Below are positions 1-14,317 of a stretch of 42,892 nucleotides of DNA, one piece after another; position 1 is the first letter of the stretch, and each line of letters opens with the position of its first letter. The position numbers and the translations under genes were made by a program. The notes beneath the pieces were generated by a model that was given only the letters and a program-made list of their open reading frames with translations, made no database searches and was not told where the DNA came from. Origin of the DNA: an uncultured Thermodesulfobacteriota bacterium (GTDB taxonomy: Bacteria; Desulfobacterota; B13-G15; RBG-16-54-18); the NCBI GenBank assembly GCA_964565525.1, contig CAZMFG010000002.1, positions 1 through 42,892 of the forward strand, given 5' to 3'.

Positions 1-7
1 ATTATAC

Positions 8-784: not shown

Positions 785-837
785 CGCGAGCTCGGCAAAA
801 GACAGCGGCTTAAAACGCCATTATATATAAAAAAGTA

Positions 838-866
838 TTGAATATTTCAGCATTGTCTGATATCTA
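838..866 (+). promoter_or_regulatory. candidate sigma70 promoter (TTGAAT-17 nt-TATCTA) upstream of the solute-binding protein gene
   Basis: -35 TTGAAT at 838-843, a 17-nt spacer, and -10 TATCTA at 861-866, about 80 nt upstream of the ATG at 946. A small hairpin (tgcggga/tcccgca, 889-907) lies in the putative 5' UTR. Confidence 0.3.
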
Positions 867-945
867 AATAAAGTAGGATTGCGGAAAATGCGGGAAGAGG
901 TCCCGCAATATAGTACGAGTCTCAATTAAAAGGGAGGAGTGTACT

Positions 946-2265: not shown

Positions 2266-2282
2266 AAAATCCGTCATGGCGC

Positions 2283-2316
2283 GTCCGCCCCTTCGAGTAA
2301 GGGGCGGACGTTTTTA
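2283..2316 (+). terminator. rho-independent terminator of the solute-binding protein gene
   Basis: Perfect 9-bp GC-rich stem gtccgcccc(2283-2291)/ggggcggac(2301-2309) with a 9-nt loop, followed by gTTTTTa. Confidence 0.7.
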
Positions 2317-2328
2317 TGGGCATTGTGC

Positions 2329-2368
2329 AAAAAAAAGAGAGACCCCACCGTTCTGGCGGGGTCTCTCT
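2329..2368 (-). terminator. rho-independent terminator of the nfnAB-like operon (minus strand)
   Basis: Perfect 11-bp stem 2336-2346/2358-2368 with an 11-nt loop. On the minus strand it is followed by a run of 8 T (plus-strand A-run 2329-2336). It lies 70 nt downstream of the stop at 2438. Confidence 0.65.
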
Positions 2369-2437
2369 TGATCAGTAAGACCTTACGTGCCTTGGGTCCT
2401 GGCGTTTCCGTCAACTCACAAGGGGAAAGCCGTCTGT

Positions 2438-3856
2438 TTAATCCTTGCTCGTCAGATACTGGTGGATTGCCTGGGACGAGTTTCTCCCCGCCCCCATGGC
2501 CAGGATTACCGTAGCCGATCCGGTTACGATGTCGCCGCCGGCGTAGACCCCCTCACGCGAGGTCTTGCCCGTCTCGGCGTCAGCCACGATATACCCCCAC
2601 TTGTTCAACTCCAGATTGGGGATGGTACCGGTGATGATGGGATTGGCGCCGGTGCCGATGGCGACGACCACCAGGTCCACGTCCAGGGTAAAATTGGAGC
2701 CCTCGATGGGTACCGGCCTCCTGCGGCCGGAGTCATCGGGTTCCCCCAACTCCATCTGGATGCATTCCATACCCACGACCCATCCCTCGTCGTTCCCGAT
2801 ATAGCGCAACGGGGCGGTCAGGAACCGAAACTGGACCCCTTCCTCTTCGGCATGGTGGACCTCTTCGGCCCGGGCCGGCAGTTCCGTCTTGGAGCGGCGG
2901 TAGACGATATGGACGTTGTCCGCCCCCAGCCGCAGGGCGGTGCGCGCCGAGTCCATGGCTACATTGCCGCCCCCGATCACCGCCACATTTTTGCCGAGGG
3001 CAATGGGGGTATCATATTTCGGGAAGAGATAGGCCTTCATGAGATTGGAACGGGTCAGATATTCATTGGCCGAATAGATCCCACAGAGGTTTTCGCCGGG
3101 GATGTTCATGAAGACGGGCAACCCCGCCCCCACCCCGAGGAAGACGGCGTCGTATCCCATCTCAAAGAGCTCATCCACGGTGAGGATTTTGCCGATGACG
3201 TGGTTGTACTTGATCTCTACTCCCAACCGTTTCAGATAATCCACCTCGGCCTCAACGATGGCCTTGGGGAGCCTGAATTCCGGTATCCCATAGACCAAGA
3301 CCCCCCCCGGCTTGTGGAGGGCCTCGAAGATGGTCACCTGATGGCCGTCCTTGATGAGGTCACCGGCCAGGGTGAGCCCTGCCGGCCCTGAACCTACGAC
3401 GGCCACCTTCCTCCCTGTCGGCGGCGGGAGTTGGGGCAGCCCTACTTCCCCCTGGGCCCTCTCGTAGTCTGCTGCAAAACGCTCCAGCCTCCCCACGGCC
3501 ACGGGCTCATCTTTCTTGCCCAGGACACAAAGGGCCTCGCACTGTGCTTCCTGAGGGCATACCCTCCCGCAGACGGCAGGGAGGCTGTTATCCTCCTTCA
3601 GTTTTTTGGCCGCTGCGATGAAGTCGCCCTCGGCGATCAGGTTGATAAATTCGGGAATCTTTACCCCCACCGGGCACCCCTCTATACACTTGGGCTTCTT
3701 ACATTGCAGACACCGGTTTGCCTCTTTTTGAGCGAGCTCAGGGGTGTATCCGTAAGGGACCTCGTCGAAGTTCCTGCTCCTCTTTTTGGGATCTTGCTCA
3801 GGCATCGGTTGCCTGGGTATCTTTTCTTTCTTCTCTTTCTTTTCTTTCTCGGCCAT
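2438..3856 (-). CDS. nfnB: GltD/SudA/NfnB-family NADPH-dependent oxidoreductase (glutamate synthase small-subunit-like; probable NADH-dependent reduced ferredoxin:NADP oxidoreductase subunit B)
   Basis: 472 aa. It has N-terminal Cys clusters CLQCKKPKCIEGCPV and CGRVCPQEAQCEALC, and two dinucleotide-binding motifs VAVVGSGPAGL and VAVIGGGNVAMD. It lies directly downstream of an NfnA/PyrK-like gene. Confidence 0.8.
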   Translation of the reverse strand: MAEKEKKEKKEKIPRQPMPEQDPKKRSRNFDEVPYGYTPELAQKEANRCLQCKKPKCIEGCPVGVKIPEFINLIAEGDFIAAAKKLKEDNSLPAVCGRVCPQEAQCEALCVLGKKDEPVAVGRLERFAADYERAQGEVGLPQLPPPTGRKVAVVGSGPAGLTLAGDLIKDGHQVTIFEALHKPGGVLVYGIPEFRLPKAIVEAEVDYLKRLGVEIKYNHVIGKILTVDELFEMGYDAVFLGVGAGLPVFMNIPGENLCGIYSANEYLTRSNLMKAYLFPKYDTPIALGKNVAVIGGGNVAMDSARTALRLGADNVHIVYRRSKTELPARAEEVHHAEEEGVQFRFLTAPLRYIGNDEGWVVGMECIQMELGEPDDSGRRRPVPIEGSNFTLDVDLVVVAIGTGANPIITGTIPNLELNKWGYIVADAETGKTSREGVYAGGDIVTGSATVILAMGAGRNSSQAIHQYLTSKD

Positions 3857-3868
3857 GGTTGTCCCTTT

Positions 3869-4705
3869 CTATTGCCCCTGTTCTTTTTGAAAGAGGTCAT
3901 ACGATCTGCGTTCTTCTTTGAGATAGGCAGCCTGGCGTTTGGTCAATTCGTCGAAGTCGACCTCGTGTCCGTCGAATTCCGGGCCATCGACACAGCAGAA
4001 TCGCGTCTTTCCACCCACCGAGACCCGGCAGGCGCCGCACATCCCCGTGGCGTCCACCATGATGGCGTTGAGGCTCACCAAGGTCTTTACACCGTACGGC
4101 TGGGTGGTCTTACAGACGAATTTCATCATGGGGACCGGCCCAATACCCACCACCAGCTTGACGTCCTTTTTCGCATCGAGCAGGTCCTTGAGGGCATCGG
4201 TGACAAATCCGTGTCTTCCATAGGAGCCGTCGTCGGTGGTAATCAGGAGTTCATCGCTCGCGTTCTTCATATAATCCTCCATGATCAGGAGGTCTTTGGT
4301 CCTGGCCCCGATAATGGAAATGACGTGGTTGCCGATATCCTTGAGGCCCTTGGTGATGGGGTATAACACGGCGATCCCCGTTCCGCCTCCCACGCAAATG
4401 ACCGTGCCCAGTTTCTCCAAGTGGGTCGGCCTTCCCAGGGGGCCGATGATATCGAGGATGGTGCCTCCTACCTGAAAGGTGCGCAGCATGGCCGTCGTTT
4501 TCCCCACTACCTGGAAGATGATATCGATGGTTCCCCCCTCAGGATCGATGCCGGCCATGGTGAGAGGTATCCTCTCCCCCGTCTCATTTGGCCTGAGCAC
4601 CACAAACTGCCCTGGTTGGGCCTTTGCGGCGATCAGGGGGGCCTCGATCTTGAAGTGACAAACGGTATTTCCCGCCATTTCTCGTTTTTCCACTATCTTA
4701 AACAA
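3869..4705 (-). CDS. nfnA: PyrK/SudB/NfnA-family FAD/NAD-binding iron-sulfur protein (probable Nfn subunit A)
   Basis: 278 aa. The TTG start at 4705 is preceded by GGAGGG at 6-nt spacing. It has a ferredoxin-reductase-like fold and a C-terminal [2Fe-2S] motif GMCGACRV...FCCVDGPEF. Confidence 0.8.
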   Translation of the reverse strand: MFKIVEKREMAGNTVCHFKIEAPLIAAKAQPGQFVVLRPNETGERIPLTMAGIDPEGGTIDIIFQVVGKTTAMLRTFQVGGTILDIIGPLGRPTHLEKLGTVICVGGGTGIAVLYPITKGLKDIGNHVISIIGARTKDLLIMEDYMKNASDELLITTDDGSYGRHGFVTDALKDLLDAKKDVKLVVGIGPVPMMKFVCKTTQPYGVKTLVSLNAIMVDATGMCGACRVSVGGKTRFCCVDGPEFDGHEVDFDELTKRQAAYLKEERRSYDLFQKEQGQ

Positions 4706-4738
4706 GGTTCTCCCTCCCTTTGCCTTTGATTTGTTTTG

Positions 4739-4752
4739 TGTGAACTATCACA
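4739..4752. promoter_or_regulatory. perfect palindrome TGTGA-N4-TCACA upstream of nfnA (operator-like site, regulator unknown)
   Basis: tgtgaactatcaca is a perfect 5-4-5 inverted repeat lying 34-47 nt upstream of the nfnA TTG start. The wider 18-mer ttgtgtgaactatcacaa (4736-4753) has TTGTG...CACAA ends. Confidence 0.25.
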
Positions 4753-4791
4753 AACCTCTCGCTCTGTCAAGTTTCACTCGAACCAACGAGA

Positions 4792-4898
4792 TGCGCACTT
4801 TTTTGCAATATTAAGGAGGTTGCACTCTTTTGATATCATGGCTCATATTAAGGAGGTGCACACTTTTTTGAAATATCAAGGAGGTGCACAATCTTCTG
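4792..4898. repeat. degenerate tandem direct repeat (3.5 units of 28-37 nt), each unit ending in AAGGAGG on the plus strand (CCTCCTT on the minus strand)
   Basis: Units: TGCGCACTTTTTTGCAATATTAAGGAGG (4792-4819), TTGCACTCTTTTGATATCATGGCTCATATTAAGGAGG (4820-4856), TGCACACTTTTTTGAAATATCAAGGAGG (4857-4884) and the partial unit TGCACAATCTTCTG (4885-4898). Units 1 and 3 are identical at 25 of 28 positions. Confidence 0.6.
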
Positions 4899-5453
4899 CC
4901 ATAATTGCCGTTTTCCCTCTCCTGTGTGGGCGGAGAAGGGGACGAGCGCCTCCGGCATGATGGAAAGGGCTTCGCTTGTTTGCTGCAGGACCTTGAAAAT
5001 CTTGTTTTTTGAAAGCTTGTCGATTTTGGTCATGGTGATTATCGCAGGCATGGCGAGGGTCTTCAACCACGCGATGAGTGAGAGGTCCAAGGGTGTGGGA
5101 CCTATCCGGGCGTCGATGATAATAACTACCCCACAGAGGGTTTTTCTGTTTTGACAGTATTGCTCTATGAGGGGGCTCCATTGTCTGCGCACTTGGTGGG
5201 GGACCTTCGCATAGCCGTATCCGGGTAGATCCACCAGGCACACCGCTTGATTGACCAGATAGAAATTGATGGACTGTGTTTTTCCAGGGGAAGAGCTGGT
5301 TCGAGCCAGGCCCTTGCGGTTTACCAGGGTGTTGATAAGGGATGATTTTCCCACATTGGACCTCCCGGCAAAGGCCACCTCCGGATAATTGCCTGGTGGA
5401 TATTCATTTTTGGGATAGACACTTTTGAGGAATTCGGCGCTTGTGATTTTCAT
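4848..5453 (-). CDS. engB: ribosome biogenesis GTP-binding protein EngB/YsxC/YihA
   Basis: 201 aa with G1 GRSNVGKSSLIN, G3 DLPGYGYA and G4 TKIDK. The last ~11 codons (LLDISKKCAPP) are read from the tandem repeat at 4848-4884. Confidence 0.85.
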   Translation of the reverse strand: MKITSAEFLKSVYPKNEYPPGNYPEVAFAGRSNVGKSSLINTLVNRKGLARTSSSPGKTQSINFYLVNQAVCLVDLPGYGYAKVPHQVRRQWSPLIEQYCQNRKTLCGVVIIIDARIGPTPLDLSLIAWLKTLAMPAIITMTKIDKLSKNKIFKVLQQTSEALSIMPEALVPFSAHTGEGKRQLWQKIVHLLDISKKCAPP

Positions 5454-5761
5454 GTTTATTGTCCCATTCTGGGAGCAAAACCCTCGCTTTTAGGCGAAGC
5501 AAACTATATAGGGTTCAAGGATTCAAGGGTTTTAGGAGTCAAGTAAAGAAAAAATAGTGATTCCTTGTATCCTTGACCACTGGACCCCTGCCGCTTTGCG
5601 GCATCCCGTATTCCGTAATTTATGCAAAGCGGAGCGGGATTGAACCCTAAAGTCCCGCCCTTGGCGGGGTAGTTTACGTTATACCAGATCAAAGGACCTA
5701 TGGCAAAAATATTGCATAAATTAACGTACTAAAAAAGAAGAAGGAAATATTTCTAAAAAGC

Positions 5762-5791
5762 TTGACACATTGAACAGAAAACAAGTAAAAT
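5762..5791 (+). promoter_or_regulatory. candidate sigma70 promoter (TTGACA-18 nt-TAAAAT) of the first radical SAM gene
   Basis: Consensus -35 TTGACA at 5762-5767, an 18-nt spacer, and -10 TAAAAT at 5786-5791. The ATG at 5800 begins only 8 nt after the -10 element and has no SD, so the transcript may be leaderless. Confidence 0.4.
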
Positions 5792-5799
5792 TTTGATCT

Positions 5800-6963
5800 A
5801 TGATACCCCTTAAAAACATCAGGAGGATTTTTGCCAAGGCCTCTCAGCAGCCTGCCTATGCCTTACGAGCGGCCCGAATGCGGTTCTTATCCTCCTTGAG
5901 CTATCGCCTTCTCGATGGGAGGAGCGCCCCCCCTGAGACCATCTCCCTGCTGCTTACCTATCAATGTAATCTGCATTGCAAGATGTGCGGGCAGTGGGGG
6001 GAGCGGGGGAGCTTAAAAGATCTCCCCTCTGCCGTCACGAGGAGATATCTGGAGCTTCCGTTGATTGAGAGCCTTATCGAAGAAGTGAAGTCCTTTCACC
6101 CCACCATGACCCTTTTTGGTGGGGAGCCCCTGCTCCACCCACAATGGGGTGAGGTCGTCAAACTGATCAAGGGGGCCGGACTTCGCTGCAACATGATCAG
6201 CAACGGCATCCTGCTCAAGAAGAAGGCCGAGGAGGCGGTGCAACTGGGACTGGATGAGATCATCTTCTCCCTGGATGGTCCTGCCGGGGTGCACGATGCC
6301 ATCCGGGGGGGGAAGGGGGTCTTCCGCAGGGCTTTGGAGGGTTTCCAGCACCTCCAGACAGTGAAGGAGAGATATGGCAAAAAGAGGCCCGCGGTGAACG
6401 TCAACACGGTCATCTGGGAGGAGAACCACACGATGTTGGGTGATATCGTTGAGGAGGCGGCCCGGTTCGGGGCCCAGACCATCACCTTTCATCACCTCAT
6501 CTTCCTCGACCAGGCGGCCTTCAGGGAGACAGAGGCCATCACACAGGCGGCCCTCGCCTGCAATTCACCTGATTGGGGAGGGTTCGTCAGAGACGAGCTC
6601 CCTGGGATAGACCCGGAGCACATCATCGAGCAGAGGCGCACGATTGAACGGGGGAGGAACGCAATACCGGCCTTTTTTTATCCCAACTTCACCGATGAGG
6701 AGATCAGGGCGTACTATAGTTCTTTTGATTTTCTTCCCACCTCGTATAAGCGGAGGTGTCTGAGTCCTTGGATGGTGGCCTATGTGCTGCCGGATGGGAC
6801 AGTCAAGCCCTGCCTCAGCCTGGGGTATGTGATGGGAAACCTGCAAGAAGCCGGTTTTCAGGAGATATGGAACGGAGATCGGGCAATGCGGTTTCGCCGT
6901 CTCCTCAAAGAGAGGGGTTATTTTCCTGTCTGTCCCCGGTGCACGGAGTTTTGTAGGTTTTAA
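5800..6963 (+). CDS. radical SAM/SPASM-domain protein (rSAM-1)
   Basis: 387 aa with the CX3CX2C motif in LLLTYQCNLHCKMCGQWG and a GGEPLL SAM-binding segment. The Cys-rich C-terminus (RRCLSPW...VKPCLS...FPVCPRCTEFC) is typical of SPASM/twitch auxiliary cluster domains. Confidence 0.8.
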   Translation: MIPLKNIRRIFAKASQQPAYALRAARMRFLSSLSYRLLDGRSAPPETISLLLTYQCNLHCKMCGQWGERGSLKDLPSAVTRRYLELPLIESLIEEVKSFHPTMTLFGGEPLLHPQWGEVVKLIKGAGLRCNMISNGILLKKKAEEAVQLGLDEIIFSLDGPAGVHDAIRGGKGVFRRALEGFQHLQTVKERYGKKRPAVNVNTVIWEENHTMLGDIVEEAARFGAQTITFHHLIFLDQAAFRETEAITQAALACNSPDWGGFVRDELPGIDPEHIIEQRRTIERGRNAIPAFFYPNFTDEEIRAYYSSFDFLPTSYKRRCLSPWMVAYVLPDGTVKPCLSLGYVMGNLQEAGFQEIWNGDRAMRFRRLLKERGYFPVCPRCTEFCRF

Positions 6964-7041
6964 CGGTGGTCTCGAAGTTGAGTGGTTGTTGCGTGTATGA
7001 GCTTGTCTATCGCCGATTCCACCTTACGGTGCAGTAAAAAT

Positions 7042-7203
7042 CTAGGAAGGACGAATAAGGGAACAATTACGCCAACCCTGTCGGCAATGGTTGCCAGCTG
7101 GGCCATCCATGTGCTGTTGCTTACACACCTGGAGCACTGCCTCCTCCGGCCTCCCTTTGACCAACACTACCAACTTGGGCTTTGTCCAGACCTTGGTTTT
7201 CAT
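7042..7203 (-). CDS. RiPP precursor peptide A1, 53 aa: MKTKVWTKPKLVVLVKGRPEEAVLQVCKQQHMDGPAGNHCRQGWRNCSLIRPS
   Basis: Translated by hand (ATG = rc of cat at 7201-7203; TAG = rc of cta at 7042-7044). The SD GGAGG lies 9 nt upstream. The 28-aa N-terminus is 26/28 identical to the second copy, and almost all nucleotide differences are synonymous in this frame. It was not in the ORF track (under 60 aa). Confidence 0.7.
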   Translation of the reverse strand: MKTKVWTKPKLVVLVKGRPEEAVLQVCKQQHMDGPAGNHCRQGWRNCSLIRPS

Positions 7204-7293
7204 CTTTTAGTGCCTCCGTGTTTTTAAGGCCTTAATCGCAACTTGTACGCCATCCAAACTATTACTTTATATCTGCATCAGATTACATGTTAC

Positions 7294-7302
7294 AGTATAT
7301 CA
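7294..7302 (-). promoter_or_regulatory. candidate extended -10 promoter element (TGaTATACT) for precursor A1
   Basis: The minus strand reads gatgTGATATACT. The identical 13-mer is conserved upstream of precursor A2 (9982-9994). It lies about 90 nt upstream of the ATG. Confidence 0.35.
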
Positions 7303-7463
7303 CATCTTTGTCATAGGGGGTAAGCAGTTTTTTGGTCATGGATGTTTACAGCAGTAACCCCCCTGCTAAAAAGCTTATGGCGGCTATCACTATATGGTAT
7401 ATATATGTGTCTGATCTTGCGTTCCTCAAAACGGTATTGTGCAGTACCGTCCGGCTACAGTGC

Positions 7464-8600
7464 TCATCCGTTCTGTCTGGGCATTAAGAGGGACAATAAA
7501 ATATCTTTTACGTCCTCGGTTTTATGTGGACGATACAGTTTGTCGGCCCAGTGTAACCGATTCATCAGCTCTTGACCTACCTCATGTCCTAACAATTGTT
7601 CCTTGTATGTCGAGAAAGAAAAATCTTTGTCCTTGAGCGCATGCATGATTGAGTTGGCTGCCACGTGACCGTACCCTAAGCTAAAGGATATCCCTTCACC
7701 CCACAAGGGATCAATTCCCGCGGCATCACCTACCAAGAGCACCCTGTTGGCTGAAAATATTGATGAGGGATGAAACCACCGTAGCTGACAGCCCTCAACC
7801 TGACTTTGATCTAGTGAAATACCCCGTGTGGCTAAAAACTCCCCAAGGATATTCCTGAGGAGAGGGATTTCCTTCCGAGAGGTGGAGAAACCACCGACGC
7901 CTATGTTCAGCCATGCTTGACCATGGAGTACCACCGGGAAGGACCAGGCATAGCCTCGAATCCCATGCCGGAATGCACACGAGAAGTCTATTTTTGCTTC
8001 CAACCTTCTTTGATCAGAAAGGTTAAAACTGTCGGCGCGCGTCATAAAACGCAGCGTCATACACGTGTTCCTTGGCCCCCGTATCCCTGCGTTTCTGCAC
8101 AGCATTCTGCGTATGATGCTTTGCGCACCATCGGCACCTACTAGGACGCGGGTAGTAAGGCTTCGCTTGGGAGTTTGTACGGCAACTGCTTCATCACGGT
8201 AAGAAAAGGAGGTCACCGGCTCGTTCTGAACAACTGAGATGCCCAGATCCAGTGCCATGTGAACTAACGCCTCATCGAATTCTTCTCGTATTACCGTCCG
8301 TAATCCGCCAATATCAAAGCAATATTCTACATAGTTATCATAATCAAAGACGAAGCACGTTCTTTTAAGCGCTAAGGAGGTTATAGTCATTGTGATGCCA
8401 AGACGCTGTAACCAGTAATCAGCATATACACTAATTCCGCCCCCACAGATCTTCTTTCGGGGGTGGGTTTTCTTCTCCAGGACTATCAGTCGATTTTTCA
8501 TTGGCGGCAGGAGCTTGCTCAGGTGTATGGCCGTCGAGATACCGGCAGGTCCTGAACCCACTACAATGACGTCATATTCAGTCTCTCTTGATCTGCCCAT
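7464..8600 (-). CDS. FAD-dependent oxidoreductase, geranylgeranyl reductase family
   Basis: 378 aa with the FAD motif YDVIVVGSGPAGISTA. The HPRKKICGGGIS and LLVGDAAGIDPLWGEGISFSLGYG segments match the pattern I associate with GGR/ChlP/BchP-type prenyl reductases. Confidence 0.75.
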   Translation of the reverse strand: MGRSRETEYDVIVVGSGPAGISTAIHLSKLLPPMKNRLIVLEKKTHPRKKICGGGISVYADYWLQRLGITMTITSLALKRTCFVFDYDNYVEYCFDIGGLRTVIREEFDEALVHMALDLGISVVQNEPVTSFSYRDEAVAVQTPKRSLTTRVLVGADGAQSIIRRMLCRNAGIRGPRNTCMTLRFMTRADSFNLSDQRRLEAKIDFSCAFRHGIRGYAWSFPVVLHGQAWLNIGVGGFSTSRKEIPLLRNILGEFLATRGISLDQSQVEGCQLRWFHPSSIFSANRVLLVGDAAGIDPLWGEGISFSLGYGHVAANSIMHALKDKDFSFSTYKEQLLGHEVGQELMNRLHWADKLYRPHKTEDVKDILLSLLMPRQNG

Positions 8601-8660
8601 AATTTAGTTCACCGTTTTGAAGATAGACGCTCCAAGAAAATGGGGTGCTTTGTGGCCTTT

Positions 8661-9530
8661 CTAGGCCCTGTATGTTAAAGCGTATTGCAGGCCGATATGC
8701 TGTATGTCCTTTGAGGATATTTCATCTTCGATAAGGGAGAGGTTGACAGAGACAAAAGCAGTCTTGTATGACTGGCTCAGAATATAATTTAAGGTTTGCA
8801 CGTGGCTGTAAGCTAGGCTGAGCCGGCGGTTGTCCAGGAGGCGAATAAATCTGGTAGGGCTTCGCGGATGAAAATAAAATACACGCCCTCCATTACCCTG
8901 AAAGGAGATGTGCAAAAGGTTGCATTCCTTAATTAATTCCTGTGCGGCATCTCGAAGTTTGAGCTTGGCCATGAGTGTAGGACTATCGAGGTCCCGGCGA
9001 TCAAGGCAAGGATATATTTCTACGCCGGTTCTCCCGTCAAAATACAAATCAATCCCAAATACAAATTCCTCATGGACCAGGTAATCGCGGATGCCTTCAA
9101 GGGGAGGGTGTAAAGAGATGACCTGATCTACCTTTTCAGGGTATTCCCTGACCATGAGATAACACTTGACCTTCGAATCACTCATGTCCGCTTTATAATC
9201 CAGACCTACGCCGATCGCTATGACCCTTAATACATCGAGGTCATTGTTGACTATTTGACCCAGAATGTCACGGTTCAACAATACGTTTTTACACCCTGCG
9301 ATCTTGTTCAAGAGATCATATATTGCATGAAGGCCGCTTTGAATATCGCTTTGCTCATACCCAAACCTGAGCCTCGAGGCATGGGTGCCTTCGCAGGAGA
9401 TCTTGACTGAGCATTCCAACAGAGAACAAGGGGTTGTGGATAGTACTTCCTCAAAGAGTCGAAGAAATGAATGCTCTTTTAACCCGAACCCCTTCTTGTG
9501 GAAAGTATACACCTGAATTAATGGATTCAT
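8661..9530 (-). CDS. hypothetical protein with ABBA-fold prenyltransferase-like strand motifs (function is inferred)
   Basis: 289-aa ORF of clear coding quality. It has recurrent short beta-strand-like motifs with aromatic or basic residues: RLRFGYE, VIAIGVGLDY, KVKCYLMV, FVFGIDLYFD, GVEIYPCL, GRVFYFHP, FVSVNLSL and IGLQYAL. These are reminiscent of NphB/CloQ or cyanobactin LynF/TruF/PatF-type prenyltransferases. Its size fits that family, and its neighbour is a prenyl-reductase-family gene. Confidence that it is a real CDS is about 0.85; confidence in the function is about 0.35. Confidence 0.5.
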   Translation of the reverse strand: MNPLIQVYTFHKKGFGLKEHSFLRLFEEVLSTTPCSLLECSVKISCEGTHASRLRFGYEQSDIQSGLHAIYDLLNKIAGCKNVLLNRDILGQIVNNDLDVLRVIAIGVGLDYKADMSDSKVKCYLMVREYPEKVDQVISLHPPLEGIRDYLVHEEFVFGIDLYFDGRTGVEIYPCLDRRDLDSPTLMAKLKLRDAAQELIKECNLLHISFQGNGGRVFYFHPRSPTRFIRLLDNRRLSLAYSHVQTLNYILSQSYKTAFVSVNLSLIEDEISSKDIQHIGLQYALTYRA

Positions 9531-9732
9531 ACGCTGATTATCGTTGCCGTTCGATTATGGTGTTTATGACAGTTGAATTTTTTACCAAGGTCACCATGCT
9601 GTCAATTGCGACGTGTATCATGGAGATAGAGAAATGAAGCCTTCATCTAGTGGTATCTAGAGCACGAGATGAGCGGGTTTGTTGCTGAGTTGATGCGCTT
9701 GTCTATTCCAGGTCTCAACTCACGCAAAAAAA

Positions 9733-9894
9733 TCAGGTAGGAATCACCCGTTGACAAGCGGAACTATAGATCGTACAGTTGTTGACATTTGGACCGCTTC
9801 TGCCCGATGTCTTACACACCTGGAGTACTGCTTCCTCCGGCCTACCCTTAAACAATACTATCAACTTCGGTTTTGTCCAGACTTTGGTCTTCAT
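9733..9894 (-). CDS. RiPP precursor peptide A2, 53 aa: MKTKVWTKPKLIVLFKGRPEEAVLQVCKTSGRSGPNVNNCTIYSSACQRVIPT
   Basis: Translated by hand (ATG = rc of cat at 9892-9894; TGA = rc of tca at 9733-9735). The SD GGAGGG lies 7 nt upstream. It has the same length as A1, the same leader, and Cys at the same positions (27, 40, 47). It was not in the ORF track. Confidence 0.7.
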   Translation of the reverse strand: MKTKVWTKPKLIVLFKGRPEEAVLQVCKTSGRSGPNVNNCTIYSSACQRVIPT

Positions 9895-9981
9895 TTTTAC
9901 GCCCTCCACGTTTTTAACGTTATAAATGCCACAAATGCGCCATCAGAACTCTTATGTATAGCTGCACTGATTAACATATAG

Positions 9982-9990
9982 AGTATATCA
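9982..9990 (-). promoter_or_regulatory. candidate extended -10 promoter element (TGaTATACT) for precursor A2
   Basis: The minus strand reads gatgTGATATACT, identical to the element upstream of A1, and lies about 90 nt upstream of the ATG. Confidence 0.35.
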
Positions 9991-10078
9991 CATCCTCCTC
10001 TCCGACATAAGCAATTCTTTTTCACGGCGCCAAGACTGTTTGAGGTCTCATGGTATCCCTTTTAATCATAACTCCACG

Positions 10079-11221
10079 TTAGAGTTCCAAAGGCAGTAAA
10101 GGGGCTCTCGTTGTCTTAAGGGCTTTAGCCCTCGCGTGGGCAACCTGGCAGAAATAGGTTACCGGTGCATCCAATTCCCCGGTCTCAAGCGAGGCATGGG
10201 CAGGGCACCACATACAGAGGTTGATCAGGGGGCATACTTGACACGTCTCTAGAAAATCGGATCTCTCCGATCGCATAGCCCGTACCTGGGGGACAAAGTT
10301 CCGCCAGGCATCGGTGAGGGTTCCTTGTTTCAGGTCATAGACACAATCGGGGTGCCAGAGGGATGGGCAGAGCCGGAAGAGGCCGTCATAGCTGAGGCTG
10401 AAACTTGCGGTCCCCGCACCGCACCGCACGAGATGGTTCGAGGTAGTATGCGATAGCTGAGGAACGATTAAGGTATCGCACTCTTTTTCCAGGGCCTGAA
10501 ACCGCTCAGGGTCCGATTGCTCCAGGGCCACGATCTCTTCGGGAGAGAGCCTTTCGGCCTTTATCTCCGCATTTCTTGTCGGGTCCCCGTCATATCTCAG
10601 ATGTAAAAAGGGGTCAAAGCGGAAGCAGTCTTTTACTCTCTCTCTGCAGAAGCGGGCAATCGCCAGCTGTTCGTGGAGATTGGTGCGAAGGGCCATGGCC
10701 TTGAGGCGTACGTTAAGGCCGTTTCCGAGGAGTAGATCGAGCCCTCGACGAAAGGCTGCAAAGGAGCCTGCCTTGCGAGTAACCCTCTCATAGGATTCTT
10801 TGCTGACTCCATAGACCGAAACCTCGATATCCCTCGGTGGATATTCCTTGAATAATTTGATATGCGCTTTTGTTATCAATGTGGCATTGGTAAAGACCGA
10901 GATCAGAAGCCCCTTTTTTTTGAGTGAGAGATAGATATCAAAAAAATCCTCTCGCAGGAGGGGTTCACCTCCGGTGATGAGGCACCACAAGGCGCCAAGG
11001 GATACGGCCTCATTTACAATCTCTTTTATATCCTCACATGAGAGTTCCCTTTTTTTGACCTCCTTATCCCCAGCCGGAAGATTGATGTAACAGTGACGAC
11101 AGTGGTTGTTGCACCGGGCGGTGATCTCCAGGTCAAAAGAGATCAGCCCCCTTCTTTTTCTCATCTTTTCCCAGAGGGGGAGATCGTGTAAGTCGGCGGA
11201 TGAAACATAGGATTCACGCAC
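10079..11221 (-). CDS. radical SAM/SPASM-domain peptide-modifying enzyme (rSAM-2)
   Basis: 380 aa with CX3CX2C in EITARCNNHCRHCYINLP and a GGEPLL segment. It has a C-terminal SPASM-like Cys array (RCGAG...LCPS...CVYD...CQVCPLINLCMWCPAH...FCQ). It is a paralogue of rSAM-3, and its start overlaps the peptidase stop by 8 nt. Confidence 0.85.
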   Translation of the reverse strand: MRESYVSSADLHDLPLWEKMRKRRGLISFDLEITARCNNHCRHCYINLPAGDKEVKKRELSCEDIKEIVNEAVSLGALWCLITGGEPLLREDFFDIYLSLKKKGLLISVFTNATLITKAHIKLFKEYPPRDIEVSVYGVSKESYERVTRKAGSFAAFRRGLDLLLGNGLNVRLKAMALRTNLHEQLAIARFCRERVKDCFRFDPFLHLRYDGDPTRNAEIKAERLSPEEIVALEQSDPERFQALEKECDTLIVPQLSHTTSNHLVRCGAGTASFSLSYDGLFRLCPSLWHPDCVYDLKQGTLTDAWRNFVPQVRAMRSERSDFLETCQVCPLINLCMWCPAHASLETGELDAPVTYFCQVAHARAKALKTTRAPLLPLEL

Positions 11222-11774
11222 CGGGCCGCCTCCTTATTATTATGAAGCGGGCAAACCTCCAGATGGGGCCTAGCAAGGGTAAGAGCCTCCAACGGGTCAA
11301 GAAGGCTATGATAAAACGATCTGGGCCGAGGCCGAAAGGGGGCTCCTCCCCGTTTCTCTCTACTTTGATAACACGCCCGAGGATGTTTGCCTTGGCGATA
11401 AACCCATCAGCCTCTGGGATATTATCCCCTTTGGTGAGGTAAGCATCCGCCCTTTTTCCGACTACCCGGTGGATGATGAGCTTGCAGGTACTCGGATGGG
11501 TGAAGACCACCACATCACCGAAACGGGGGTCAGCTCCCTGCACAGGGGCAATAGTGAGGACATCGCCATCCTTGATAAAGGGGGACATGCTAAAACCCTT
11601 GCACCGAAACCTGAAGGACGCCCCCTTGTCAAGCACGCCCCTCATGAGTTCCTCAAGGTGTTGGCTGTAAAGAGATAACTCCTCCCTCTTCTTGACAAAG
11701 AGGGCTGGCTTAACTTGCATGTCAGGTGAGGTGACCATTAAAGCAGGTTTTATATCACTTCTTTGAGGCTTCAA
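11214..11774 (-). CDS. S24/S26-family serine peptidase (signal peptidase I / SipW-like motifs), candidate leader peptidase
   Basis: 186 aa with a KGFSMSPFIKDGDVL box (Ser nucleophile), a KLIIHRVVGK box (His/Lys general base) and a YLTKGDNIPEADG box. The C-terminal segment FIIAFLTRWRLLPLLGPIW is hydrophobic. It overlaps the PqqD gene by 20 nt. Confidence 0.7.
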   Translation of the reverse strand: MKPQRSDIKPALMVTSPDMQVKPALFVKKREELSLYSQHLEELMRGVLDKGASFRFRCKGFSMSPFIKDGDVLTIAPVQGADPRFGDVVVFTHPSTCKLIIHRVVGKRADAYLTKGDNIPEADGFIAKANILGRVIKVERNGEEPPFGLGPDRFIIAFLTRWRLLPLLGPIWRFARFIIIRRRPGA

Positions 11775-12066
11775 CGATCATCTTCCTCTTGAGGAGTTCT
11801 TTTGCAAGGCCGATCACATCCCGCTCGATCTCGCCGTCCGGTGCCTCATACTCCGTAGCGAGTTCCTCAGCCACCGCCTTCAAGCTCTTTGTGCCGTCCA
11901 GTTTTTCCCACATGGCCCTGCCAGTCTCATTTAGGGTAAAGAGTTCGTCCTCCATATCCCCCATGCCGGCAACAAGGGGGACGATGATGAGTTCTCCCTC
12001 AATCTCCCTGCATACCAGGTCCTCCGATGGGACGTAGGCGGCGTCAAATTTGACCTTTGAGTCCAT
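11755..12066 (-). CDS. PqqD-family peptide chaperone (RiPP recognition element protein)
   Basis: 103 aa. The pattern ...VCREIEGELIIVPL...FTLNETGRAMWEKLDGTKSLKAVAEELATEYEAP...ERDVIGLAKELLKRKMI is typical of stand-alone PqqD/RRE proteins. It is flanked by rSAM/SPASM genes. Confidence 0.8.
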   Translation of the reverse strand: MDSKVKFDAAYVPSEDLVCREIEGELIIVPLVAGMGDMEDELFTLNETGRAMWEKLDGTKSLKAVAEELATEYEAPDGEIERDVIGLAKELLKRKMIVEASKK

Positions 12067-13288
12067 TACAGACCTCCTTTGTGTGGCGAGTGAAGTGAGT
12101 TGTGGCGATAAAAATTTGTATCCTTTCTTTCCAGTTCCTTATCTGCCAGGCCTGCTCGCCTTCTTCAAGCAGCCCCAAGACCCGTGCCTGCGCATGGGCG
12201 ACCTCGCAGAGGTAGTCAACCGGTGTGTCCAAGGTCCCGTGCTCCATCCACGACCAGGCCGGGCACTGTTCGCAGAGGCCCTTCAGAAAGCAGTTGGCAC
12301 AGCGGGTGAGGTAATCACGGTTTTTGGCTTTCCTCTGCCTTATTCTTGGAAAGAAATTCGTCATGGCATCTTTGAGTGAGCCTTTTTTTAGATCATAAAC
12401 GGTGTCTGGGTGCCTCAGCAACATGCATGGTTGGAGATAACCGTAGGCATCGACACATCCGCTCCTCACCCCTGCGCCGCAGGAGAAGATGTTTGTCCCC
12501 GATGGCCTGGCAAACATAGAACAGAATTCCCGCATCTCTTTCAGGTATTTCTCTTGCCTCCTGGAAAAGAATGTTATTACATCCTCAGGTGAGGGTCTGA
12601 GCCCCTTGATAAGGATGTTCTTTTTGCTCGAGTCCCGGCGTGCGCGAAGATCGAGTAAAAGGGTATAAGAGGGTGCTGTGTCCATCCAGGGGATGGTGGA
12701 GGCCCACGATTCAAATTCCTCTATTTCTTCTTTGTTAGGTGGGAGAAGCGCACCCGTGACCACAAACGGGACCTGATATTCTAATAACAAATGCGTACCG
12801 CTCCACGCGGCTTCAAAAGAACCCGCGATTCTAGTGATTGCCTCATAGGAGTTCCTCGTCATTCCGTAGAGGGTAATTTCGATAGGCATGAGGGGTGGGG
12901 TGCGCCCAAATACCTTGGCCAGCGTTGGTGTAATCAATGTGGCGTTGGTGCAGATCGTCACCCGCAGGCCGAGCCTGCGGGCAAAGATATAGAGGTCTTC
13001 AAAATCTTCCCTCAAGAGGGGTTCCCCCCCTGTGAACCTTACTGTGAGACAGCCGAGGGAAAGGGCCTCTTGGAGGATCTCCTGTATCTCTCCTGTCGAC
13101 AGTTCCCTTTTTTGGGCATGACGATCGTCCGCAGGGAGATTTATATAACAGTGGATACAGTTGTTGTTGCAGCGTTCGGTGAGCTCCATGTCGAGTGAGT
13201 TAAGAGCAGTGGTATTCCCCTTCCCGACGGAGACCCCATCGTCCTTTATCTTTACTACAATATAAGAATCTTTAATGACCATCCTCAC
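12044..13288 (-). CDS. radical SAM/SPASM-domain peptide-modifying enzyme (rSAM-3)
   Basis: 414 aa with CX3CX2C in ELTERCNNNCIHCYINLP and a GGEPLL segment. It has a SPASM-like array (SCGAG...CVDAYGYLQPC...RCANCFLKGLCEQCPAW...LCE). The start codon is uncertain (GTG at 13288 or ATG at 13282). Confidence 0.85.
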   Translation of the reverse strand: MRMVIKDSYIVVKIKDDGVSVGKGNTTALNSLDMELTERCNNNCIHCYINLPADDRHAQKRELSTGEIQEILQEALSLGCLTVRFTGGEPLLREDFEDLYIFARRLGLRVTICTNATLITPTLAKVFGRTPPLMPIEITLYGMTRNSYEAITRIAGSFEAAWSGTHLLLEYQVPFVVTGALLPPNKEEIEEFESWASTIPWMDTAPSYTLLLDLRARRDSSKKNILIKGLRPSPEDVITFFSRRQEKYLKEMREFCSMFARPSGTNIFSCGAGVRSGCVDAYGYLQPCMLLRHPDTVYDLKKGSLKDAMTNFFPRIRQRKAKNRDYLTRCANCFLKGLCEQCPAWSWMEHGTLDTPVDYLCEVAHAQARVLGLLEEGEQAWQIRNWKERIQIFIATTHFTRHTKEVCNGLKGQI

Positions 13289-13336: not shown

Positions 13337-14317
13337 TCAAAGGTGCCTTAAGAGGTCTGTTACCCCTCCATCTTTATTAAAGTGAAGGGTATAGCAGGGA
13401 ACTTCATGAGCCATCGTATTCATTAATGCAAGCATTTTCTCCCACCACTCGGCTGTAACCAAAGGTTTTATCAGACAAGCCAAGAGGATCTTGATGATAT
13501 CCTGCGTGTGGTCCATATGGATGAGTTGGTTTCCCCGGTCCTGTTTCAGAAAAAGAATGGCCTTCAACGGCGCGGAATCTGCCGAAACATCAGGAATATC
13601 GCCATGACTCCAGGTCCCGTGGATCTTGAAACCCTCCGGCCACCTTCTTACAATCATCCGGTCATCGCACAGAATCTTTGCCTTACCCTGCATCATCATC
13701 ACCATGGTGGATTTGCCCGCATTGGAATGTCCCACGAAAAGGAGTCCTTTGCCGTCAAGCACTACGCCGCTTGCATGGATATAACACCCTCCCCGTTCAG
13801 CCAGAAGTTGGGCGAGGATGACCTGATCAGTTGGAAAGAGGGTGAGGGAAGGGATATTGCCCCTGTGGAAAGGCCTCTCAGTTTTATTATATATCTTGAC
13901 CGTTCTACGGTTCATTATCGCCAGTTGGTGGATATCCCTTTCTTGAACAAGGCGTGGACGCGTGAAACTTCCCCCATTTGTTTTCTTACGAGATCTTGGA
14001 TAGAGGCGGCGCCATAGTCGTTTAATCGGTTCCCATGTGCCCCCCGGGACAACCACGTAGATCCAGCAAGGCCCCTTTCTGTAAATGACCCACGGGGGCC
14101 TCCGATAGACCTCGTCAGCCATATCCAAGCTGGTCAGAGGTGGTAGGGAGAAGTGGTGCCTGATGGTTATGGTATCCTTTCCAGGTCTATCCACTTCAAA
14201 GAGTCTGAACTTGGGGTGGAAGGTCGTATCGGTGATGGGTAAGTCCGATACCATCTTTATAGTGATACCGGCAATGTGATAATAGCGGCGGTCTAAGACC
14301 CGGGGTTTTTCAGTCAT
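13337..14317 (-). CDS. HPr kinase/phosphorylase-related P-loop kinase (HprK C-terminal-domain-like)
   Basis: 326 aa. The segment IHASGVVLDGKGLLFVGHSNAGKSTMV...ILCDDRMIV matches the HprK catalytic-domain pattern (hG..v..kGvLl.G.SG.GKS....L..DD). Confidence 0.7.
   Translation of the reverse strand: MTEKPRVLDRRYYHIAGITIKMVSDLPITDTTFHPKFRLFEVDRPGKDTITIRHHFSLPPLTSLDMADEVYRRPPWVIYRKGPCWIYVVVPGGTWEPIKRLWRRLYPRSRKKTNGGSFTRPRLVQERDIHQLAIMNRRTVKIYNKTERPFHRGNIPSLTLFPTDQVILAQLLAERGGCYIHASGVVLDGKGLLFVGHSNAGKSTMVMMMQGKAKILCDDRMIVRRWPEGFKIHGTWSHGDIPDVSADSAPLKAILFLKQDRGNQLIHMDHTQDIIKILLACLIKPLVTAEWWEKMLALMNTMAHEVPCYTLHFNKDGGVTDLLRHL

Follow-up and report, generated by a model that had tools for sequence, protein, structure and literature searches.

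Prenylation is among the few lipidations known for ribosomal peptides, and it is in use for peptide engineering. To our knowledge, the allyl double bond is left in place in every known peptide prenylation. Here, we ask whether two neighboring genes of an uncultured Thermodesulfobacteriota bacterium could add a further step to this chemistry, i.e., transfer of a prenyl group to a peptide followed by its reduction. The genes lie in a stretch of 42,892 nt, the whole of which we refer to as “the window”. A preliminary description of this DNA proposed that a prenyltransferase-like protein of 289 aa and a flavoenzyme of 378 aa act jointly on a peptide, and that no known RiPP pathway pairs a prenyltransferase with a prenyl reductase. 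A full-text literature search found no published RiPP pathway with such a pair either, and reductases go unmentioned in a 2026 review on peptide prenylation.

The locus and the distribution of the gene pair

The 289-aa ORF (8661..9530, minus strand) and the 378-aa ORF (7464..8600, minus strand) are on the same strand and 60 bp apart. They had been described as sitting between two precursor genes, and this placement is correct: precursor A2 (9733..9894, minus strand; core TSGRSGPNVNNCTIYSSACQRVIPT) is on one side and precursor A1 (7042..7203, minus strand; core QQHMDGPAGNHCRQGWRNCSLIRPS) is on the other, with the leader MKTKVWTKPKLIVLFKGRPEEAVLQVCK common to both. In the ORF list, A2 starts at a GTG at position 9909. 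A scan of positions 6900–10100 for promoters and terminators gave only weak consensus matches, namely a −35/−10-like site ahead of the prenyltransferase gene and a T-run hairpin where A2 ends.

The leader family of A1 and A2 is found at >100 metagenome loci, and the RiPP cassette consists of radical SAM, PqqD, S24 peptidase, and HprK-like genes. Directly upstream of A2 is a gene for a radical SAM maturase (10079..11221, minus strand; SPASM-type by its NCBIfam relatives) that is kept in all related loci. Further along the minus strand are genes for an S24/S26 signal-peptidase-like protease, the presumed leader peptidase (11214..11774; Peptidase_S24; TIGR02228 at 58.9 bits, above the cut-off of 51.85), a PqqD-like leader-recognition protein (11755..12066; PF05402, 55 bits), a second radical SAM maturase (12044..13288; profile matches), and a ScmC/HprK-like P-loop protein (13337..14317; TIGR04249 ScmC, E = 4e-10), the orthologues of which have precomputed PF27840 ScmC matches. 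A third, divergent radical SAM/SPASM protein (5800..6963, plus strand; profile matches) flanks A1 and occurs in the window-like subclade only. This cluster, which encodes three radical SAM enzymes, has NfnAB-like genes nearby. The cassette borders on a large locus of glycan genes, one of them for a WecA-like polyprenyl-phosphate transferase. None of the window ORFs encodes a polyprenyl diphosphate synthase, no subtilisin-like protease of the PatA/PatG cyanobactin type is among the window ORFs scanned, and no dedicated exporter was found in the window. The host lineage is Thermodesulfobacteriota/Desulfobacteraceae, and the hosts of the cassettes are Thermodesulfobacteriota MAGs; the source bacterium is of the sulfate-reducer type.

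With its HprK-like ScmC, PqqD-like protein, and two radical SAM/SPASM proteins, the cassette resembles the SynChlorMet (SCM) cassette ScmC–ScmF (TIGR04248–04251). However, scores against the SynChlorMet equivalogs (ScmC 39, ScmD 19, ScmE 76–79, and ScmF 76–77 bits) are far below the respective cut-offs of 125, 100, 400, and 400 bits. The family described here differs in that it includes an S24 peptidase and has precursors that can be identified; one of its branches also carries the prenyltransferase-reductase pair.

Strict co-occurrence of the two genes is directly supported by their distribution. The reductase gene follows the prenyltransferase gene at a distance of 7–137 bp in 15 of 15 genome or metagenome loci, with prenyltransferases that are 33–92% identical, and the adjacency recurs in 10 further metagenome loci (~25 in total). 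Neither gene was found without the other in any locus where the contig leaves room. At one locus (L006), the pair keeps its position though the upstream neighborhood differs. A related cassette (L019) has a 39%-identical prenyltransferase and no reductase, which counts against a joint function of the two enzymes. A GGR-like protein with 40% identity (L007) is encoded by itself next to polysaccharide genes.

Joint gain and loss is equally direct. Both genes are missing from 25 or more cassettes that belong to the leader family of A1 and A2. One of the loci that lack them (L142) has flanks with ~80% DNA identity to the window. A blastn comparison of the two shows that exactly the segment 7010..9673 is missing; this segment holds the prenyltransferase gene, the reductase gene, and A1, and it represents an insertion/deletion unit. 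Adjacency, shared presence and absence, and L142 all bear out the proposal that the two genes act as one RiPP tailoring module. The best explanation is that one branch of a larger family, the peptides of which are modified by radical SAM enzymes, has gained them as a two-enzyme tailoring module.

Families and folds of the two enzymes

The 289-aa protein had been likened to ABBA prenyltransferases from its size and five strand motifs. HMMs, a PDB sequence search, and an AF2 model place it with the cyanobactin-type (LynF/TruF/PatF, DUF5838) peptide prenyltransferases. The score is 97.7 bits against Pfam PF19156 (DUF5838; gathering score 28.8) and 119.2 bits (E = 2e-34) against NCBIfam TIGR04445, the latter below the trusted cut-off of 140; TIGR04445 is matched by 36/36 members of the clade, which spans 46–76% identity (best E = 1.9e-37). 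The PDB sequence search matched KgpF (8ye0, E = 7.5e-28), as well as LimF, PirF, and PagF, with PatF as the most distant relative (53 bits, versus 153 for KgpF). Identity to characterised prenyltransferases is 20–26%. The model (pLDDT 91, pTM 0.88) has ten strands. Strong Foldseek matches are limited to cyanobactin prenyltransferases: LimF (E = 9e-23, TM 0.83), KgpF, DciF, PirF, PagF, and PatF are at E = 1e-15 to ~1e-22 with TM 0.78–0.85, and the next group, indole prenyltransferases, is at TM ~0.5. The predicted fold is a ten-strand ABBA barrel and not another fold, and all five of the motifs (KVKCYLMV 120–127, GVEIYPCL 169–176, GRVFYFHP 215–222, FGIDLYFD 158–165, and RLRFGYE 53–59) lie on predicted beta-strands.

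Conservation extends to residues shared with solved members of the family. The clade has E39, R53, S119-K-x-K122, Y163, G166-R167, E171, Y173, E268, E270, and Y283 (invariant or in at least 34 of 36 sequences) in common with KgpF and LimF, so the anticipated Lys/Arg/Tyr ring is conserved and aligned with theirs. Of these, E39, R53, K120/K122, E171, Y173, E268, E270, and Y283 are invariant in the 36 sequences, as is Y124, which is shared with KgpF and aligns with Phe in LimF; R167 is present in 34. We take E39 to be the conserved acidic residue of the family, and the Arg/Lys/Tyr positions to form the ring that binds the diphosphate. HMM E-values of 1e-27 to 3e-38 across both enzymes and ~90 clusters of orthologues of the 289-aa protein (46–76% identity) argue that the ORFs and motifs are not due to chance. 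Sequence and predicted fold confirm the 289-aa protein as a member of the cyanobactin-type ABBA prenyltransferases, with transfer of a prenyl group to a peptide as its predicted activity.

The likeness to the cyanobactin enzymes (KgpF, LimF, PagF, PirF, DciF) covers the HMM family, the ten-strand barrel, E39 and the diphosphate-binding positions, and, by prediction, a ribosomal peptide as substrate. By contrast, the sequence is only distantly related and below the NCBIfam trusted cut-off; the host comes from an anaerobic Thermodesulfobacteriota lineage rather than from the cyanobacteria; PatA/PatG proteases and N–C macrocyclisation are both missing; the substrate is radical-SAM-processed with a PqqD-recognised leader; and a GGR-like gene follows the prenyltransferase gene. 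Recruitment of an ABBA enzyme to another RiPP class has parallels in the lanthipeptide prenyltransferase MppC and in prenylated lasso peptides (PMC12715784), although those pathways are without a reductase and have lanthionine or lasso scaffolds rather than radical-SAM-derived ones.

The 378-aa protein is an FAD enzyme that TIGR02032 and motifs assign to the geranylgeranyl reductase (GGR) superfamily, with a predicted role as a prenyl double-bond reductase. It scores 132.1 bits (E = 3e-38) against TIGR02032, below the trusted cut-off of 158.8, and 36/36 relatives tested match this profile. Lesser matches are to MenJ (75 bits), BchP/ChlP (73), QhpG (50), and the halogenase CmlS (42); the E-value lead of GGR profiles over every other family is >15 orders of magnitude. 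The Pfam GGR_cat match is weak (13 bits; gathering score 27). Several orthologues are named “geranylgeranyl reductase family protein” by JGI.

Catalytically competent GGRs are defined by features that include an active-site Cys (SaGGR Cys47) and a YxWxFP motif (PMC6309074, PMC12004948). The hallmarks listed in the preliminary description (GSGPAG, RKKICGGG, and GDAAGIDPLWGEGI) are all found in the 378-aa protein. C52, in RKKICGGG, is invariant in 36 sequences and aligned with the active-site Cys of TaGGR (“VRCGEG”); GYAWSFP aligns with TaGGR GYIWVFP. Y217, W219, P222, and G303 are invariant in the family, and G301 and E302 are nearly so; G301-E302-G303, within GDAAGIDPLWGEGI, is the GEG motif, which in other GGRs varies between GGG, GEG (ChlP/BchP-type, photosynthetic), and REG (ScGGR) (PMC6309074). 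The FAD Rossmann fold, Cys, YxWxFP, and GEG are features in common with SaGGR, TaGGR, ChlP/BchP, MenJ, and Bsr. Differences are the length (378 aa versus 452 aa for SaGGR), the spacer from YxWxFP to G234-V-G236 (11 residues, i.e., x11-GxG, versus x7–8 in archaeal GGRs), the sub-threshold profile scores, and the presumed substrate, a peptide-borne prenyl.

A halogenase or monooxygenase had to be considered because PltA, a halogenase, is slightly above TaGGR in single-sequence and profile searches of the PDB. In the Foldseek search, SaGGR and TaGGR occupy ranks 1–5 (E ~3e-21, TM 0.73) and halogenases come next (E = 2e-20), such that the lead of the GGRs is less than one order of magnitude. The family profiles and the Cys, YxWxFP, and GEG motifs nevertheless group the protein with GGRs and not with halogenases or monooxygenases: C52 has no counterpart in alignments with PltA and CmlS, and CmlS has a gap there. 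The hallmarks of halogenases are WxWxIP and PR..(I/V)GES, instead of which the 378-aa protein has YAWSFP and K-I-C-G-G. The Thermodesulfobacteriota/Desulfobacteraceae host, the three radical SAM enzymes, and the NfnAB-like genes nearby favor O2-independent reductive flavin chemistry over an oxygenase. On motifs, profile scores, and anaerobic context, we reject a halogenase or monooxygenase as the primary reading. Membership of the GGR superfamily is supported, and a reductase role is predicted.

Proposed chemistry and alternatives

We propose that the ABBA prenyltransferase would use a short allylic prenyl diphosphate as donor and attach its prenyl group to the A1 and A2 cores. The GGR-family FAD enzyme would then hydrogenate the trisubstituted C=C bond of the peptide-bound prenyl by a GGR-like mechanism, with reduced FAD, the active-site Cys, and YxWxFP to align the substrate. 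The resulting side chain would be saturated and of the isopentyl type (or dihydro-/tetrahydrogeranyl), a predicted modification that has not yet been reported. Bsr, a GGR homologue, saturates C24=C25 in sterols, a terminal bond of the prenyl type (PMC12004948), which sets a precedent for short isoprene units that are not lipid-bound as substrates of the family; with MenJ, it also illustrates that GGRs can saturate a lone isoprene unit on a ring system. Taken as a whole, the scheme of prenylation of a core Tyr or Trp followed by saturation by the flavoenzyme stands, in our estimate, evenly balanced between right and wrong; we infer the chemistry of each step, which residue accepts the prenyl, how long the donor is, and in which order the enzymes act. 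A point against it is that the characterised GGRs that we know of act on lipids, quinones, chlorophyll, or sterols, and never on a peptide.

The most likely acceptor is the Trp (W44 of A1) or Tyr (Y43 of A2) of the Cys-Cys loop, which the two cysteines of the core delimit; these numbers, and those of H31 and H39 in A1, had been given correctly. A link between the module and aromatic cores is directly supported: W or Y is present in 39/39 module-associated cores versus 22/28 cores without the module (Fisher p = 0.004, for sequences that are not independent), and the L142 core has neither an aromatic residue nor His. In 4 of the 39 module-associated cores, the only W/Y lies outside the Cys-Cys loop. 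With Trp in A1 and Tyr in A2, a single transferase would have to accept both, which is a point against this assignment. We reject the C-terminal Ser/Thr of the cores as acceptor since it is invariant across the leader family irrespective of the presence of a prenyltransferase; it better fits the family-wide HprK-like protein.

The earlier suggestion of a “phytanyl-like” C20 lipid is not borne out. In an alignment, the chain-length gate positions of PagF and LimF are His207 and His221 in the 289-aa protein, as in the DMAPP enzyme KgpF; across the clade, His or Tyr is at the PagF-F222 position, and His or Asn is at the H237 position (the roles of gate residues are from reviews and alignments). 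These pocket residues argue against a C20 donor, as does the lack of any polyprenyl synthase gene among the window ORFs; both point to a short one, most likely dimethylallyl (C5) and possibly geranyl (C10). The same evidence bears on an alternative in which the GGR-like enzyme would act before the transferase, saturating the distal bonds of free GPP, FPP, or GGPP and sparing C2=C3, with the modified chain then attached to the peptide. ChlP, which makes phytyl-PP, is the model for such donor tailoring. GGRs that act on free prenyl diphosphates spare the alpha (allylic) unit, and GEG is the photosynthetic variant (PMC6309074); the BchP/ChlP profile is matched by 36/36 relatives of the flavoenzyme, and, in the clade of the 289-aa protein, a small residue (Asn, Ser, or another) takes the place of the Trp that serves as a gate in PagF and LimF (W271/W273). 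However, the residues at the F222 and H237 positions suggest a short pocket, a C5 donor offers no distal bond to reduce, and no polyprenyl synthase is encoded nearby; we consider this order of events quite unlikely.

It is also unlikely, in our view, that the flavoenzyme modifies the peptide itself, by hydroxylation or oxidation of the loop Trp/Tyr as in QhpG or by halogenation, such that a prenylation site is created or complemented. The QhpD/QhpG system of the QHNDH gamma subunit is a close parallel, in that crosslinking of a Cys-rich peptide by a radical SAM enzyme is followed by modification of an aromatic residue, a Trp of the thioether-crosslinked peptide, by a PHBH-fold flavoprotein (PMC7876137). 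The QhpG profile is matched by 36/36 relatives (best E = 1e-19), PltA and CmlS rank high in both the sequence and the fold searches of the PDB, and the cores have a conserved aromatic residue. Yet QhpG is CmlS-like and uses O2, has Glu42 rather than Cys facing the flavin (PMC7876137), and involves no prenyltransferase, whereas the 378-aa protein has its invariant Cys within K-x-C-G-G, at a place where halogenases show a gap and GES. The GGR profile score of 132 bits far exceeds those of QhpG and CmlS, YxWxFP is present rather than the halogenase WxWxIP, and O2-dependent chemistry is unlikely in a probably anaerobic host. PatF is reportedly inactive, and cyanobactin clusters are known to include inactive homologues of prenyltransferases; with a TIGR04445 score below the trusted cut-off and so little identity to characterised enzymes, the 289-aa protein might similarly be non-catalytic or non-prenylating, with another joint role for the pair. 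This we hold to be very unlikely, given that the basic, Tyr, and acidic residues of KgpF and LimF are kept across a diverse clade and that PatF is the most distant of its PDB relatives. Lastly, the adjacent WecA-like glycan locus and the solitary GGR-like protein of L007 raise the idea that the reductase, or both genes, serve a neighboring exopolysaccharide or polyprenol-carrier pathway and not the peptide. We find this extremely improbable: the pair is always between or beside precursor genes, within the RiPP operon and on the same strand; it is present or absent as a unit, tracking particular core types; and in L006 it holds its place despite a different upstream neighborhood.

Implications for peptide prenylation and the GGR family

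Peptide prenylation followed by saturation is our preferred reading, and it leads to a broader, tentative one, to which we give a little less than an even chance: the cassettes may define a new class of radical-SAM-crosslinked peptides of anaerobic Thermodesulfobacteriota, one branch of which would acquire a saturated isoprenoid through a prenyltransferase and a GGR-family “peptidyl-prenyl reductase”. If true, reduction of a prenyl group that is bound to a peptide would be without precedent, as would cyanobactin-type prenylation in a radical SAM pathway of an anaerobe. The flavoenzyme would be the first GGR enzyme with a peptide substrate, widening the range of the family beyond lipids, quinones, and sterols. 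The new post-translational modification of Tyr or Trp would be a branched alkyl group, saturated and chemically stable, and the two enzymes would constitute a biocatalyst pair for non-oxidisable, Claisen-proof lipidated peptides. More broadly, the analysis defines a large uncharacterised RiPP family, with >100 metagenome loci, a common leader, an HprK-like protein, and an invariant C-terminal Ser/Thr, the tailoring genes of which can now be compared branch by branch.

Organization of the RiPP cluster

The 289-aa and 378-aa proteins are encoded by adjacent minus-strand ORFs (8661–9530 and 7464–8600, respectively) separated by 60 bp. The ORF list matches the preliminary description exactly in coordinates, strand, and sizes, and the observation as a whole (the ORFs, their motifs, and their setting between precursor genes) is confirmed. 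The two flanking small ORFs, A2 (9733–9894, minus strand; leader MKTKVWTKPKLIVLFKGRPEEAVLQVCK, core TSGRSGPNVNNCTIYSSACQRVIPT) and A1 (7042–7203, minus strand; core QQHMDGPAGNHCRQGWRNCSLIRPS), have a leader in common. Profile matches identify, on the same strand, a radical SAM enzyme (10079–11221), an S24/S26-type peptidase (11214–11774), a PqqD-like protein (11755–12066), a second radical SAM enzyme (12044–13288), an HprK-like/ScmC-like P-loop protein (13337–14317), and an NTP_transf_5 protein (14470–15351); a third radical SAM/SPASM gene (5800–6963) adjoins A1 on the opposite, plus strand. By these matches, the region is a RiPP cluster related to SynChlorMet but outside its membership, because scores fall far under the equivalog cut-offs.

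A large glycan locus (14470–41683) adjoins the RiPP cassette. It encodes a WecA-like transferase, DegT, PIG-L, WbqC, many GT4/GT9 glycosyltransferases, Wzx/Wzy-type proteins, a tyrosine autokinase, and an XrtA/PEP-CTERM-associated ATPase-like protein, and relatives share this neighborhood. GC content falls to 0.35–0.40 at 28–32 kb of the window. At 2438–4705 (minus strand) lies a pair resembling NfnAB or GltD/DHOD-B electron-transfer subunits (Fer4_20 + Pyr_redox_2; DHODB_Fe-S_bind + NAD_binding_1), syntenic in the related locus L001; the pair would suit an anaerobic host, to which it could conceivably supply low-potential electrons.

Family and fold of the two enzymes

The 289-aa protein scores 97.7 bits against Pfam DUF5838 (gathering score 28.8) and 119 bits (E 2e-34) against NCBIfam TIGR04445, “LynF/TruF/PatF family peptide O-prenyltransferase”, under its trusted cut-off of 140. 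Its strong matches in a PDB sequence search are all cyanobactin-type prenyltransferases, led by KgpF (8ye0, E 7.5e-28), followed by LimF, PirF, PagF, and DciF, with PatF last; KgpF reaches 153 bits with a profile built from 36 orthologues. An AlphaFold2 model from the 36-orthologue alignment (pLDDT 91, pTM 0.88) has helices alternating with ten beta-strands, and each of the five proposed “strand motifs” lies on one of them. The non-ABBA fold that would have contradicted the preliminary description did not emerge: in Foldseek searches of the PDB, the best matches are cyanobactin-type ABBA enzymes, with LimF at the top (E 9e-23, TM 0.83), then KgpF, DciF, PirF, PagF, and PatF, and, after a large gap, indole ABBA prenyltransferases (TM ~0.5). 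Every member of the 36-member clade shares ten residues (E39, R53, K120, K122, Y124, E171, Y173, E268, E270, and Y283), and 34/36 have Y163, as do 34/36 for R167. KgpF and LimF have matching residues at the aligned positions apart from conservative changes at two of them, with Asp replacing E39 in KgpF and Phe replacing Y124 in LimF.

TIGR02032, “geranylgeranyl reductase family”, is far ahead of all other families for the 378-aa protein, although its 132 bits (E 3e-38) stay under the trusted cut-off of 158.8. MenJ (75 bits), BchP/ChlP (73), and archaeal digeranylgeranylglycerophospholipid reductase (64) rank behind it. The best families outside the GGRs are PRK11445, an uncharacterised FAD-binding family (55 bits), and QhpG (50), with UbiH-type hydroxylases (44) and the halogenase CmlS (42) lower still. 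All 36 flavoenzyme relatives match both TIGR02032 (best E 1e-48) and BchP/ChlP (best E 2e-30). Catalytically competent GGRs are defined by an active-site Cys (C47 in the archaeal SaGGR), a YxWxFP motif, and a GGG motif, for which ChlP/BchP-type enzymes have GEG (PMC6309074, PMC12004948). All three occur in the 378-aa protein, as C52 (RKKICGGG), Y217-A-W-S-F-P222, and G301-E-G303, with little or no variation across the family, and the archaeal TaGGR has aligned counterparts of C52 and YxWxFP. At the position of C52, halogenases have an alignment gap before GES, and QhpG has Glu42, which faces the flavin (PMC7876137).

Some comparisons bring the protein closer to halogenases. Foldseek with its AlphaFold2 model (pLDDT 86) ranks SaGGR and TaGGR first (E ~3e-21, TM 0.73–0.74), with halogenases less than one order of magnitude behind, and PDB sequence searches place PltA marginally above TaGGR. 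Pfam GGR_cat gives only 13 bits, and YxWxFP is followed by an 11-residue spacer, versus 7–8 in archaeal GGRs. With GGR profiles well ahead and the Cys, YxWxFP, and GEG features all present, we reject a halogenase or monooxygenase identity as the primary reading, small as the fold margin over halogenases is. Our reading is of a divergent GGR-superfamily member with its predicted catalytic hallmarks intact, upholding the earlier GGR-family assignment.

Coupling of the prenyltransferase and reductase genes

In all loci with a 33–92%-identical prenyltransferase, the next gene on that strand, after 7–137 bp, is GGR-like. These paired loci (L001, L003–L006, L008–L013, L016–L018, and L020) are all Thermodesulfobacteriota/Desulfobacteraceae MAGs, with flavoenzyme identities of 49–97%. 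At L007, a GGR-like protein (40% identical) is solitary, with polysaccharide genes alongside, and at L019, a 39%-identical DUF5838 prenyltransferase is found in a SynChlorMet-like cassette without a reductase. Because these two are unpaired, pairing is a trait of this clade rather than of either whole family. The L019 cassette (1–6200) comprises two rSAM/SPASM proteins, PqqD, a P-loop protein, and the prenyltransferase, with two near-identical small ORFs (37–222 and 359–574) upstream of the last.

A search for the leader as a degenerate DNA pattern (W-x-K-P-K-L-x2-L-x2-G-x2-E-E) finds all known precursors but that of L020, and at least 119 further loci in metagenome contigs. A tblastn presence/absence table scored both genes over leader-pattern loci: among the matches listed, both are present at 10 loci, and none has one gene without the other where the contig has room; nine loci are uninformative, with a contig end cutting the prenyltransferase gene. 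The cassette occurs without either gene in at least 25 loci that extend at least 2.5 kb past the precursor. Locus L142 is a natural “module-minus” comparator. Over L142 1–3408, compared with window 5812–11131, its flanks have 79–82% DNA identity to the window (radical SAM genes at 10079–11221 and 5800–6963), with no equivalent of 7010–9673, i.e., the prenyltransferase, reductase, and A1. Thus, the two genes have been gained and lost as a unit, and the proposal that they form one module holds: they are adjacent in all paired loci and jointly absent from sister cassettes and L142. This joint gain and loss is the strongest evidence available here that both enzymes act in the same pathway step.

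In some module-free branches, a different enzyme, e.g., a Pyr_redox_2 flavoprotein, occupies the slot after the precursor, a position that seems to be a variable tailoring slot. Four loci with Lys-rich cores and no prenyltransferase (L035, L052, L070, and L140) have a predicted Pyr_redox_2 flavoprotein of ~380 aa right after the precursor, the Pfam match being one checked in L052. At L006 (prenyltransferase 41%, reductase 49% identical), a class I methyltransferase gene (11234–12022) after the reductase gene may provide a further tailoring step. More distant DUF5838 homologues (26–27% identity) occur in a Candidatus Omnitrophota MAG (L021, 7001–7825) and a Methanosarcinales archaeon MAG (L022, 3562–4452), each with radical SAM genes within a few kilobases; cyanobactin-type prenyltransferases may be widely recruited by RiPP pathways of anaerobes.

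Predicted acceptor, donor, and chemistry

Module-associated cores always have exactly two Cys, with a G-P-x2-N-x-C-type segment and an inter-Cys loop. Trp or Tyr is present in 39/39 distinct module-associated cores, inside the Cys-Cys loop in 35, versus 22/28 module-free cores (Fisher p = 0.004, indicative only, as the sequences are related); the single L142 core, RKNVTGRNTSGCGSITRNCRAATNT, lacks Trp, Tyr, Phe, and His. A C-terminal Ser/Thr ends 39/39 cores with the module and 27/28 without, so it is not transferase-specific and is discarded as the prenyl acceptor. Therefore, the best candidate acceptor is the loop Trp or Tyr, in which case a single enzyme would have to take both. KgpF, the closest solved relative, is a Trp prenyltransferase.

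Nearly all module-associated cores have Asn/Asp directly before the first Cys or separated from it by a single residue (N-C or [N/D]-x-C), which may mark a radical-SAM thioether site. An HprK-like (ScmC-like) P-loop protein is found in every cassette, and an NTP_transf_5 nucleotidyltransferase often. In lasso peptides, HprK-like kinases phosphorylate the C-terminal Ser, with further decoration; the C-terminal Ser/Thr and HprK-like protein here are reminiscent of this. The leader (W-x-x-P-x-L-x3-x-x-G) is also similar to the lasso leader recognition motif. At L079 (precursor 8120–8281, minus strand), which has the same radical SAM cassette and leader, lasso genes for Transglut_core3 (B2-type protease) and Asn_synthase (lasso cyclase type) lie ~2–4 kb downstream.

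The prenyl donor of PagF is extended from C5 to C10 by F222G, while the triple variant F222G/H237G/W271T has a pocket wide enough for C15 (PMC7973389, PMC12814516). The equivalent LimF positions are G224, H239, and W273, and PDB 8je4 is the H239G/W273T farnesyl variant. In a profile alignment, the 289-aa protein has H207, H221, and N263; across the 36 clade members, position 207 is His in 27 and Tyr in 6, position 221 is His in 21 and Asn in 13, and position 263 is never Trp but Asn, Ser, or another small residue. The DMAPP user KgpF has Gln, His, and Val at the three sites, and two of the three gates therefore look closed. Profile scans of the window ORFs found no polyprenyl diphosphate synthase across the entire window. 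Judged by homology, gate residues and synthase scan together favor a C5, at most C10, donor. Of the earlier interpretation, the enzyme identities and the module concept stand, whereas the “phytanyl-like” C20 lipid is unsupported and its chain length probably wrong.

In the proposed mechanism, the prenyltransferase would ionise an allylic diphosphate and alkylate an aromatic side chain of the core, either before or after radical-SAM processing; the GGR-like enzyme would then reduce the trisubstituted double bond by adding a proton and a hydride, the latter taken from reduced FAD, giving a saturated branched alkyl group. We give roughly an even chance to this prediction, that the pair prenylates and then saturates. 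There are precedents among GGR relatives acting on a single ring-attached isoprene unit rather than a C20 lipid: MenJ, by its NCBIfam name a menaquinone beta-isoprene unit reductase, and Bsr, which reduces sterol C24=C25 (PMC12004948). With a C5 donor, reduction must follow transfer, because the sole double bond is the allylic one needed for transfer. With a longer donor, the free diphosphate might first have its distal bonds reduced in a ChlP-like step, and we retain this order as a rival. O2-independent, reductive flavin chemistry is favored over hydroxylation or halogenation, because the module's hosts belong to sulfate-reducer lineages, the cluster itself encodes three radical SAM enzymes, and NfnAB-like genes lie close by.

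Among RiPPs, cyanobactins are established cases of prenylation, joined more recently by lanthipeptides and lasso peptides (PMC12715784); GGRs have established roles with archaeal lipids, chlorophyll, tocopherol, menaquinone, and sterols (PMC6309074, PMC12004948). In a literature search short of most subscription-journal papers, we found neither a paper pairing RiPP prenylation with a GGR nor a description of this cassette; a 2026 review of peptide prenylation leaves a reductase unmentioned. The family assignments are not new, because in JGI's automatic annotation most orthologues already carry the name “LynF/TruF/PatF family peptide O-prenyltransferase”, with “geranylgeranyl reductase family protein” or “menaquinone-9 beta-reductase” given to some of the partners. 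The new part is the pairing and its implication: to known RiPP prenylation, the pair would add a predicted reduction for which peptides have so far offered no example.
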